A stretch of DNA of 13,468 bases, taken from assembly GCA_046758705.1 (NCBI GenBank), contig JBHIAT010000097.1, forward strand, positions 1 through 13,468. The letters are read 5' to 3'. The position numbers and the translations under genes are program-made. This document shows, in pieces, positions 1-1,410 of the stretch (the stretch's first letter is position 1; each line of letters opens with the position of its first letter). Under the pieces are notes generated by a model, which was not told where the DNA came from, did not search any database, and saw only the letters and a list, made by a program, of their open reading frames with translations. This DNA comes from Candidatus Bipolaricaulia bacterium. Its GTDB lineage: Bacteria > Bipolaricaulota > Bipolaricaulia > JBHIAT01.

Positions 1-227
1 CCGCCCAGGCGATTGACGATGTACTGTTCGGCGCGGTGGATGCCGGCCTTGGCGACGTACAGGGAATGTTCACTGTCCTGGATCAGGGAGCTGTACCGCT
101 GACTGTTGAGGGAGACGCTGTAGTAGCCGGTGCCCAGCAACGTGATGAGCATCAGGACGAAGAAGGTGACGACCAGCGCTGATCCCCGGTCGTCTGTCCT
201 GAGATGTGATCCTCTCCACCTGTGCAT
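1..227 (-). CDS. PilX-like type IV minor pilin / pilus assembly protein, N-terminal part (runs off window)
   Basis: Not in ORF track. Manual translation from ATG at 227 (SD GGAGG at 233-237): MHRWRGSHLRTDDRG|SALVVTFFVLMLITLLGTGYYSVSLNSQRYSSLIQDSEHSLYVAKAGIHRAEQYIVNRLG. Class III signal peptide (RG|SAL plus hydrophobic stretch, no Glu+5, as in PilX/GspK) and a PilX_N-like 'LYVAKAGI' motif. Confidence 0.85.
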   Translation of the reverse strand, partial: MHRWRGSHLRTDDRGSALVVTFFVLMLITLLGTGYYSVSLNSQRYSSLIQDSEHSLYVAKAGIHRAEQYIVNRLG

Positions 228-232
228 GCGAA

Positions 233-264
233 CCTCCAATGAATGTAAGTAAAGTCATTGGAAG
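233..264 (-). promoter_or_regulatory. Shine-Dalgarno-sequestering hairpin in the pilX-like leader (putative riboswitch expression platform)
   Basis: Minus strand CTTCCAATGA (264-255) pairs with TCATTGGAGG (242-233): 10 bp with one G-U, burying the GGAGG SD. Confidence 0.65.
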
Positions 265-370
265 CCCGTCCCAACTCAGCCGTCGGAGTTGAATCGGTCC
301 GGGCATGCAAAGGTGCGCGCTACAACTGGCCGGTAACGGCTTAGTTGAGCCTGATGATTAAGCTTTGCAT

Positions 371-451
371 GGTCCTTCGGCAACCCGGTTACCCCTGGTC
401 AGGGGCCCGTGGGCTTTGCACCCCATGAGGTGGGGCACCTTTATCGGGACC
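371..451 (-). ncRNA. Variant c-di-GMP-I (GEMM) riboswitch aptamer, second of a tandem pair
   Basis: Minus strand GGTCCCGATAAAGGTGCCCCACCTCATGGGGTGCAAAGCCCACGGGCCCCTGACCAGGGGTAACCGGGTTGCCGAAGGACC. P1 (GGTCC/GGACC), GCAAAG junction, P3 and 3' TGCCGAA align with the canonical aptamer at 463-540; P2 lacks the AAA internal loop and GNRA loop. Confidence 0.7.
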
Positions 452-462
452 GATGGTCACCT

Positions 463-540
463 CCTTCGGCAGCTCGGCTGTCCTTTCGGACCCGAAGCTT
501 TGCGTCCCCACCTTTCGATGGGTTTGCCTTTGTCGTGGAT
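463..540 (-). ncRNA. c-di-GMP-I (GEMM) riboswitch aptamer
   Basis: Minus strand ATCCACGACAAAGGCAAACCCATCGAAAGGTGGGGACGCAAAGCTTCGGGTCCGAAAGGACAGCCGAGCTGCCGAAGG matches the GEMM consensus (GGCAAACC..GAAA..GGGACGCAAAGC..AGCC..GCCGAA). The G20-equivalent is G, pointing to c-di-GMP rather than 3',3'-cGAMP. Confidence 0.93.
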
Positions 541-684
541 GCGTCTTTGGGCTTCACCCATAATTATACCCAACAAATCGAATTTGTAGAGCTAGAGCCG
601 AGCTATTGATATAGGCCAGGCAAACAGCAAAATGGGTTTGCCTTTGTCGTGGATGCGTCTTTAGGCTTCGACCCATAATTATAC
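518..684. repeat. Direct repeat of ~52 bp (518-569 and 632-684) covering a -10 box and the 5' part of the riboswitch aptamer
   Basis: ATGGGTTTGCCTTTGTCGTGGATGCGTCTTT(G/A)GGCTTC(-/G)ACCCATAATTATAC occurs twice, with one substitution and one indel. Confidence 0.95.
563..590 (-). promoter_or_regulatory. Putative sigma70 promoter for the riboswitch-pilX leader (second -10 copy at 678-683)
   Basis: Perfect TATAAT at 568-563 on the minus strand, about 25 nt upstream of the aptamer; only a weak -35 (TCTACA, 16-bp spacer). Confidence 0.55.
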
Positions 685-840
685 GCCAAGACTTGAAGGT
701 TTAGCCGTGAGCGGGTGAACGGAGTGGATCACAGAGAGGGGGGAACTGTTATTAACGCGACAGGATGACGACATCTTCCAGGTAGGGATCGCCGACCCGA
801 AAGATCAGCTGACCGTCGTACTGCTCCTCAAGCTCTTTTC

Positions 841-1410
841 TCAGCGGGTTGGACCTGTCTTCCTCTTCTTTTTTAAGGCCTGAAGTAGATCGCGCTCGAC
901 CCGCTCTTCTAACTCTGCATCGTAGACCAACTGGCTGGGGTGAAGCTTGTAGTACAGCGGCTCACCACCGTCGGTAAACCGGACTGTCACTTTCACCAGC
1001 TCCGAGTAGGGCTCGACTCGGGCGTCAATCTCCGCCACCTCAAGCTCCCCCGTCTGCTTTTGCACGATCTGCTCTATCACATCTGCTACAAGCAACCGGA
1101 TCTGCTTCATCACTGTGACCTCAATCAGCTTCTCTTTAATCCAGACTCTCAACAGCGTTGTGTATCCCAGGCTCTTGGCCGCGGCGATGGCCTTCACCTG
1201 CTCCAAAAGGGGCTTGTCCAAACGTAGCGCCACCACCTCCTTCTCGGGTCGGACAAGCTCCACCTCCACCGGCTCCAGCTCGTCCCAGTAGTCCGCGGTA
1301 CTATGGGTCTCCCAGAATCGGGCGATCTGCTCGTCCGTCCAACTTGTCATGTCCGGGAGCTTCTTCGCACCCTGGGACTTAGGCTTAGGCTTAGGTTTAG
1401 ATTTAGACAT
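841..1410 (-). CDS. CopG/BrnA-like ribbon-helix-helix antitoxin with an extra ~90-aa C-terminal domain
   Basis: DEQIARFWETHSTADYWDELEPV...VALRLDKPLLEQVKAIAAAKSLGYTTLLRVWIKEKL is typical of CopG-family antitoxins paired with BrnT. ATG at 1410 overlaps the end of the upstream toxin remnant and follows AAGGTG. Confidence 0.8.
   Translation of the reverse strand: MSKSKPKPKPKSQGAKKLPDMTSWTDEQIARFWETHSTADYWDELEPVEVELVRPEKEVVALRLDKPLLEQVKAIAAAKSLGYTTLLRVWIKEKLIEVTVMKQIRLLVADVIEQIVQKQTGELEVAEIDARVEPYSELVKVTVRFTDGGEPLYYKLHPSQLVYDAELEERVERDLLQALKKKRKTGPTR

Follow-up and report, generated by a model that had tools for sequence, protein, structure and literature searches.

The c-di-GMP-I aptamer (RF01051, Vc2 type), a sensor of cyclic di-GMP (c-di-GMP), has one of the best-studied riboswitch folds, in which helices P1, P2 and P3 meet in a three-way junction with the ligand-contacting letters G20, A47 and C92, and two contacts between P2 and P3 are regarded as essential. 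According to the passages on this fold in PMC11705072 and PMC3764141, P2 docks on P3 through a tetraloop–receptor contact and the C44–G83 pair, and those of PMC3764141 list A23, A25, G32, A35, C44 and G83 as highly conserved across the class. In Vc2, neither G83C nor the swapped C44G/G83C mutant showed binding by isothermal titration calorimetry, while A62G, which disrupts the stacking of the tetraloop on its receptor, slowed folding (PMC11705072). Such aptamers are also common in tandem, and the part of the survey PMC9481103 that concerns them counts 347 doublets and 12 triplets, classed under 'multiple expression platforms' (pseudo-cooperative). Here we describe the second aptamer of such a doublet, named B*, from a stretch of 13,468 nucleotides (the window) that forms contig JBHIAT010000097.1 of a Candidatus Bipolaricaulia bacterium (assembly GCA_046758705.1). 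Judged from homology and conservation, B* is a derived form of c-di-GMP-I, real, selected and wired into a switch, which has dispensed with both docking contacts. Coordinates are window positions, and the element and its leader lie on the minus strand.

An aptamer without docking elements

The sequence-only reading of this locus had thought that standard models might score B* poorly, and they do. In a permissive scan of the 651-nt stretch 150–800, RF03167 aligns over its full length (model positions 1–80 of 80) at 448..375 with E 4e-05, but its 30.3 bits fall short of the gathering score, 59; with RF01051 the score is 26.7 bits, where the cut-off is 35 (genome-wide E 0.0058). None of the described variant models of Rfam reaches its gathering score on B*.

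Including an extended P1 (451..445 with 379..371), the element spans 451..371. Model alignment and the minimum free energy (MFE) fold give the three-way junction of c-di-GMP-I, and alignment and sequence together place its letters at 439 (G20), 417–415 (A47–A49) and 380 (C92). The pocket letters had already been recognised from their contexts AAAGG, GCAAAG and UGCCG, and they are indeed present; a second distinct copy, on contig C112 of the same genome, has identical junction letters. P2 is a continuous helix of 8 bp, 438..431 with 425..418, which runs from G21–C46 to an A–U pair and is closed by a loop at 430..426. Its former internal-loop positions are now complementary (G23·U44, C24–G43, C25–G42). 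The sequence-only reading had correctly seen the CCCCA/UGGGG stem, the CCUCA loop and the absence of both the AAA strand and a GNRA tetraloop, while its description of the stem as short gives way to the continuous helix, which is the MFE structure of the isolated B* and is retained in three whole-leader MFE folds. P3 is short (415..382), with an AA bulge at 390..389; position 83 is A389 and position 44 is U420.

Measured against RF01051, B* thus lacks the P2 internal loop (A23–A25 opposite G42–C44), the GNRA tetraloop with its receptor, the C44–G83 pair and a score above the gathering threshold. Nor does it carry the marks of the variants. GEMM-Ib aptamers of the type that senses cyclic GMP-AMP (cGAMP) carry A at position 20, where B* has G (439). 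The 'GGC' in the name of RF03167 presumably denotes a G at the A47 position (model consensus GCGAAg), where B* has A (417). The predicted stability of B* is unremarkable (z = -1.26; 24 of 200 shuffles fold equally well), and the case for B* as a real element is made by homology and conservation, not by folding energy.

Descent from a canonical aptamer

The genome (3.7 Mb in 319 contigs, 93.9% complete, 4.7% contamination) contains exactly six occurrences of the motif GACCGAUUYRACUCC, the core of a downstream block described below, each after a tandem array, and these define six homologous leaders. Those on C97 (the contig of the window), C190 and C112 carry B*, whereas C52a, C52b and C23, likewise on other contigs of the same genome, have a canonical aptamer, B, in its place. 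The C190 copy of B* is identical to that of the window, within a leader 93.5% identical over 570 nt; for C112, where a different gene follows, leader identity is 83.9% over 218 nt.

Because three homologous leaders keep a canonical B in this place, the comparison shows B* as its descendant, which has lost the A-loop, the GNRA loop, the P3 receptor and G83, that is, all elements that dock P2 on P3. The AAA/GGC loop of B corresponds to GCC/GGY in B*, with standard pairs in both distinct B* rows and in none of the five canonical ones. The distal P2 stem has gone from 6 bp with a GAAA loop to 2–3 bp with a loop of 3–5 nt (CCUCA in C97 and C190, AGC in C112). In P3, the part CCCUAACG..CGAGGG of canonical B, which forms the receptor-bearing tip, is deleted, and the bulged GG has become AA or GA, which turns G83 into A. 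One pair of P3a is altered on both sides, from A–U to G–C (five versus two rows), and P1 is longer than that of B by one G–C pair in all three B* leaders.

These losses stand out against the rest of the genome, where RF01051 has 33 matches at E ≤ 1, many in doublets or triplets, and 27 over the cut-off. On inspection of the sequences, each of the 27 combines the AAAC strand with a loop that reads GAAA or GTGA (a regular expression parsed 25 of them). Position 83 is G in each of the 24 of the 27 that can be parsed there and A in all three copies of B*.

The density of c-di-GMP-I aptamers in this genome is very high, with about ten tandem arrays (on C52, C23, C149, C81, C55, C66 and others), among them triplets on C52 (3789..3499) and C23 (28237..28606).

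Conservation

Between C97 and C190 no substitution falls in B* with its P1 (0/86), against 1/74 in aptamer 1, the canonical first aptamer of the doublet, 6/53 in the spacer downstream of B*, 6/37 in the hairpin ahead of the Shine–Dalgarno (SD) sequence and 18/224 in the coding sequence. The segment 316..272, which holds a conserved block discussed below, has 0/45. Were B* to change at the rate of its flanks, pooled as 30/314, a count of 0/86 would arise with a probability of about 2e-4. The more distant C112 differs from C97 by 17% in B*, 11% in aptamer 1 and 47% (21/45) in the spacer, and all stem substitutions relative to C112 and to canonical B preserve pairing.

At least two further variants of B* were found in contigs from four runs of one study, labelled as hydrothermal-vent metagenomes. 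Among the changes listed for them, beside which there are 10 further substitutions and 13 indels, substitutions lie in loops (398, 426, 427) or preserve pairing (409, C–G to U·G; 437, U22·G45 to C–G), indels are confined to two loops and the junction strand J1/2, and none falls at G20, A47–A49, C92, 44 or 83. On the evidence of these alignments B* is not decaying and is under constraint. The claim that it is no randomly decayed copy is borne out, as the stem substitutions among copies keep pairing and the element is conserved as strongly as aptamer 1.

Over window positions 215–600, some contigs of runs X1–X4 join 471 straight to 278, omitting 192 nt that hold B*, the spacer and the block, and others run back from 538–558 to 444–511. 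These junctions probably represent other paralogous leader architectures or assembly across leader repeats.

Positions 44 and 83

A U–A tertiary pair between 420 and 389, compensating for the C–G of aptamer 1, was part of the sequence-only reading. The letters are as it gave them; the pair finds little favour. In the seven distinct rows of B and B*, 44/83 is C–G in five, all canonical, U–A in one (C97 = C190) and C/A in one (C112). The 'compensated tertiary pair' comes from this single sequence type and is not confirmed by the alignment. C112 has G23–C44 where the window has G23·U44, and its A83 is no partner for C44. The exchange of G23–C44 and G23·U44 is what a helix position ordinarily shows. 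Since U44 pairs with G23 inside the continuous P2, and a base in a continuous helix cannot at the same time form a Watson–Crick pair with the P3 bulge, a U44–A83 tertiary pair is disfavoured, and the letters of B* at 44 and 83 are better explained without it.

An aptamer of the same taxonomic class, at G047:C22:23902-23979 (L208), looks canonical by eye, with a GAA/GGU loop and a GCGA tetraloop, and has U44 together with A83. U–A may therefore be a permitted form of the 44–83 tertiary pair within the family.

The leader and its expression platform

The features of the leader, all on the minus strand, are the following.

563..590, minus: predicted sigma-70-like promoter, −35 TCTACA at 590..585 and −10 TATAAT at 568..563 (consensus scan)
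464..537, minus: aptamer 1 ('A'), canonical c-di-GMP-I (RF03167 and RF01051 matches)
447..464, minus: inter-aptamer linker GGAGGUGACCAUCGGUCC (RNAalifold pairing with 285..300, pair counts)
371..451, minus: aptamer 2 ('B*') (sub-threshold Rfam matches, MFE fold, homology, conservation)
317..370, minus: variable spacer with local hairpins, including CAUGCAAAG at 368..360; the fastest-evolving leader segment
285..315, minus: conserved 31-nt block CACCUUUGCAUGCCCGGACCGAUUCAACUCC, proposed anti-aptamer or switching sequence
228..291, minus: hairpin CAACUC/GAGUUG at 291..272, then anti-SD GGGCUUCC at 267..260 (whole-leader folds)
1..227, minus: start of the controlled gene, ATG at 227..225, with an N-terminal hydrophobic anchor; the gene is cut by the contig end
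632..768, minus: upstream partial duplicate, with a second promoter, the 5' leader and ~21 nt from the start of an aptamer A copy (91.2% identity over 137 nt to promoter and aptamer A start of C190)

Aptamer 1 is the single match in the window at Rfam gathering thresholds, with 79.8 bits for RF03167 (gathering 59, E 5e-18) and 75.7 bits for RF01051 (cut-off 35), and it has the AAA/GAC internal loop, the GAAA tetraloop, C44 and G83. Some 12 nt separate it from B*. The linker between them contains the 3' continuation of P1 of aptamer 1 and the 5' strand of P1 of B*. By eye it extends P1 of aptamer A in other leaders as well: GACAC/GUGUC in C52a, and UCC/GGA in the window where C149 has ACC/GGU.

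RNAalifold was applied to the six leaders over the stretch that starts at the 3' end of aptamer A and stops shortly after the conserved block. The consensus is an alternative structure and not the aptamer fold of B or B*: GGAG, UG and AUCGGU of the linker are paired to the 3' part of the block, and its 5' part pairs with CYGGGYU and CGAAGG from the 3' half of B or B*, where they serve as 3' strands of P3a and P1. In the window, CCGGGUU..CGAAGG of the 3' half of B* and AUCGGUCC, UGA and GGAG of the linker all find their complement in the 31-nt block, and the C97 and C190 leaders form the helix of linker and block in their MFE folds. The 30 alternative pairs are formed in 95.6% of 180 cells, against 25–52% when one partner is slid by 1–3 columns. 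Opposite the changed P3a pair, the block column (101–188) has A in three B leaders (U–A) and G in C97 and C190 (C–G). The 5' strand of P3 and the block have thus changed in step with the 3' strand of P3 in two of the three B* leaders, which points to mutually exclusive pairings. From the modelled structures we infer that the two aptamers of the doublet share one expression platform, both competing with the one 31-nt block.

Downstream of the block, the anti-SD at 267..260 pairs in whole-leader folds with the region of the SD sequence GGAGG (237..233), and the hairpin ahead of it retains its pairing in C190 despite a different sequence. A regulatory role for the hairpin and the anti-SD is suggested by these predictions. 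SD exposure in constrained ensembles is higher for the alternative state than for the closed one in C190 (0.51 versus 0.00), C112 (0.53 versus 0.00) and C52a (0.50 versus 0.27). With P1 of aptamer A enforced, P1 of B* forms with probabilities of 0.37, 0.17 and 0.02, and that of canonical B with 0.00, 0.04 and 0.00. No terminator-like site was found on the minus strand of window positions 1..900, which cover the whole leader. With low confidence, the predicted structures would make c-di-GMP an OFF signal. A kissing interaction of the P2 loop (CCUC) with the SD was also considered and given up, as C112 has another loop sequence and the metagenome contigs are variable there.

The promoter matches the consensus at 10 of 12 positions (two sites, against 0.5 expected in shuffled sequences), and the paralogous leaders are preceded by an identical TATAAT and the 5' leader GAAGCCCAAAGAC. 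The upstream copy at 632..768 breaks off inside P2 and is followed by unrelated sequence and then by the proximal promoter. It looks like a duplication or recombination scar, from which a second upstream transcription start would result.

The genes under the leaders of C52 (L002:131-1255), C190 (L030:1716-2539) and the window (1-227) encode paralogous membrane-anchored proteins. The complete C52 protein (374 aa) matches DUF7305 with 49.6 bits (cut-off 27), and PilX_N weakly, below its cut-off (E 0.05); NCBIfam gave no match for any of the three proteins examined. The C112 leader controls an unrelated membrane protein of 175 aa with no family match.

Distribution

The relatives compared all belong to the same class as the window's genome, and none shares its order or family. 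With the three B* copies as its input, the covariance model R1 (self-scores 111.7, 111.7 and 91.1 bits) found nothing above 48 bits outside its own genome, either in 100 relatives or in a phylum sample of 150 genomes. Among the matches listed, 41 in 29 loci were examined (about 120 further rows of the relatives scan lie outside this set); 40 keep the A-rich P2 strand or a remainder of it, and one, L051, has a continuous P2. The class-wide pattern AARGGTG..YGCAAAG..YTGCCGAA, which is blind to continuous-P2 forms not starting with GGUG, matched in 4 of 184 genomes, where apart from the window's own genome only G087, the source of L051, has a continuous P2.

L051:1501-1590 (G087:C263:2328-2417) is a singlet in a 5' untranslated region, about 130 nt before an open reading frame with a signal-peptide-like start. 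Its P1 and junction letters are GEMM-I-like, its P2 is a continuous helix of 9 bp (GUGCCGUGC/GCACGGCGC), and its P3 is deviant. Rfam offers nothing for it at E ≤ 0.1, and the remaining 73 genomes of its family contain no match to it.

Scanning all species for GGTGCC..GGYGCAAAG..TGCCGAA gave at least 119 stretches, nearly all due to chance, the pattern being too loose. R1 applied to 119 of these loci (80 + 39) returned two weak matches, L119 with 23.7 bits and L178 with 18.0 bits. L119 was rejected as a B*-like candidate, being an ordinary RF01051 member with a 53-nt P2 insertion. A metagenome scan for GGTG..GCAAAGCC..CCGGGYTGCCGAAGG, which may exclude records of the window's own genome, yielded 26 stretches, none with a continuous P2. 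By eye, 23 are canonical with the GGTG in a GUGA-type loop, one (L180) has a 61-nt P2 insertion and two are chance-like. On these searches B* appears so far confined to one uncultured lineage; the two wide scans were poorly designed and say little about other phyla.

Possible roles of B*

The reading we favour, with a probability of roughly 45%, is that B* is a detuned or ligand-blind latch following aptamer 1, devoid of canonical-affinity binding of c-di-GMP. Both P2–P3 docking contacts are missing in B*, as are A23, A25, G32 and A35, and impaired binding is expected because the docking contacts are lost and the Vc2 mutants of the C44–G83 pair mentioned above fail to bind. In the absence of ligand, the linker and the 3' half of B or B* would be paired with the 31-nt block. 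Closure of the P1 helices would free the block, which would refold with the anti-SD and SD region and shut translation. In the B* leaders, aptamer 1 would sense the ligand and its P1 would strip the linker from the block, upon which B* would fold and lock the released state. Such a latch would shift the threshold of the B* paralogs relative to the leaders with A and B. The longer P1 and the P1 probabilities of B* offer weak hints of ligand-independent closure.

Several points weigh against this reading or against the scheme that carries it. Gene conversion between C97 and C190 could equally give the count of 0/86, and the comparators are paralogs of one metagenome-assembled genome or contigs of one study, hence not independent. 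The alternative structure was derived from the very alignment used for counting, which inflates the contrast; double-sided changes occur in only two alternative pairs, and the key covarying pair is a C/U mismatch in C112. Three of five leaders expose the SD more in the alternative state and two show no change, so that the constrained thermodynamics are inconsistent between leaders and give weak hints at most, while the OFF direction is drawn by inference. The Vc2 results come from single disruptive changes made in a different sequence context and may be an imperfect guide to a coordinated redesign. The latch itself is proposed from sequence and predicted folds, and the kept junction letters, with a P3 balanced against the alternative pairing, would also fit a working sensor.

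We tentatively retain that second possibility, the one proposed by the sequence-only reading, in which B* would be a docking-free c-di-GMP sensor of lower affinity or slower kinetics, a loose partner to the tight aptamer A on one platform. It would account for the junction letters, kept in both distinct B* sequences and matching the canonical aptamers of the same genome, although three letters kept at about 16% divergence in two sequences are not significant. P1, P2 and P3 are retained through pair-preserving changes, conservation equals that of aptamer 1, and the 3' strand of P3 still co-varies with the anti-aptamer block. The unrelated singlet L051 from another family presents a continuous P2 of the same kind (GGUGCC..GGCGC) with identical junction letters in a 5' untranslated region, but with no Rfam match and no counterpart in its family it may itself be a relic. 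The main difficulty is that both known P2–P3 contacts are gone, when loss of C44–G83 alone abolishes detectable binding in Vc2 (PMC11705072). That B* should be a natural minimal c-di-GMP aptamer, free of the tetraloop–receptor contact and the 44–83 pair and part of a two-threshold switch made from one aptamer class, strikes us as rather unlikely. In structural terms, the A83 bulge might make an A-minor contact with the new G23–Y44 pair.

That B* should be no more than a leftover of aptamer duplication, without function and carried along between functional parts, is considerably less probable. Its sub-threshold scores on both Rfam models, its restriction to one genome and close relatives and the loss of all tertiary-contact elements are what a remnant would show. 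Against this, no stem change disrupts pairing in the copies or among the metagenome changes listed, the adjacent spacer diverges by 11% (C190) and 47% (C112) where B* diverges by 0% and 17%, P1 has gained a G–C pair in all three B* leaders, and the complementarity to the block is maintained.

Sensing of another ligand, such as 3',3'-cGAMP or another dinucleotide, which the sequence-only reading had entertained, is very improbable: variant classes of GEMM-I do exist, RF03167 and RF03168 being given as variant families in the part of PMC12452182 concerned, but G20, A47 and C92 are c-di-GMP-type letters, the same in aptamer 1 and the canonical class, and J1/2, J2/3 and J3/1 show no change absent from canonical aptamers of this genome.

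Comparison with known systems

With RF01051, B* shares the three-way junction of P1, P2 and P3, G20, A47–A49, C92, the bulges of P3 and the position in a 5' untranslated region; it differs in having no P2 internal loop, no GNRA loop, no P3 receptor and an A for G83. The best Rfam family for both aptamers of the doublet is c-di-GMP-I-GGC (RF03167), preferred probably owing to their short P3, although both have GCAAAG, with A for the G of the model consensus GCGAAg. Competition within the Rfam clan can mislabel aptamers like aptamer 1, and the 'GGC' label is not to be taken literally. Word searches of the open-access literature, to which published supplementary alignments may add such forms, found no description of a tetraloop-less GEMM-I aptamer.

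If B* binds its ligand with neither docking contact, the minimal requirements of the c-di-GMP-I fold would need revision, and B* would provide an example of natural affinity tuning. If it does not bind, it would represent a 'ghost'-type domain in a c-di-GMP tandem, and a case in which paralogous genes acquire different thresholds because one sensor of the two is disabled. In both cases, annotation based on thresholds overlooks derived aptamers, and the members of some c-di-GMP-I doublets may depend on one common expression platform instead of being independent switches. The interest of B* is limited by its distribution in one uncultured lineage and would rise with a demonstration of docking-free binding.

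In the 'ghost aptamers' of glycine singlets the ligand pocket is lost and the contacts between domains are preserved. B* is their opposite, with its pocket letters kept and its tertiary contacts lost. They nevertheless offer an analogy for the latch, as a degenerate domain kept beside a working aptamer for the sake of architecture, to go by the part of PMC9481103 that deals with them. The c-di-GMP-I tandems in the corresponding part of that survey are like the present doublet in that two or three aptamers stand serially before one gene. Here, in contrast, the two aptamers lie about 12 nt apart with no terminator-like site, apparently serve one platform, and the second has been stripped of its docking elements.

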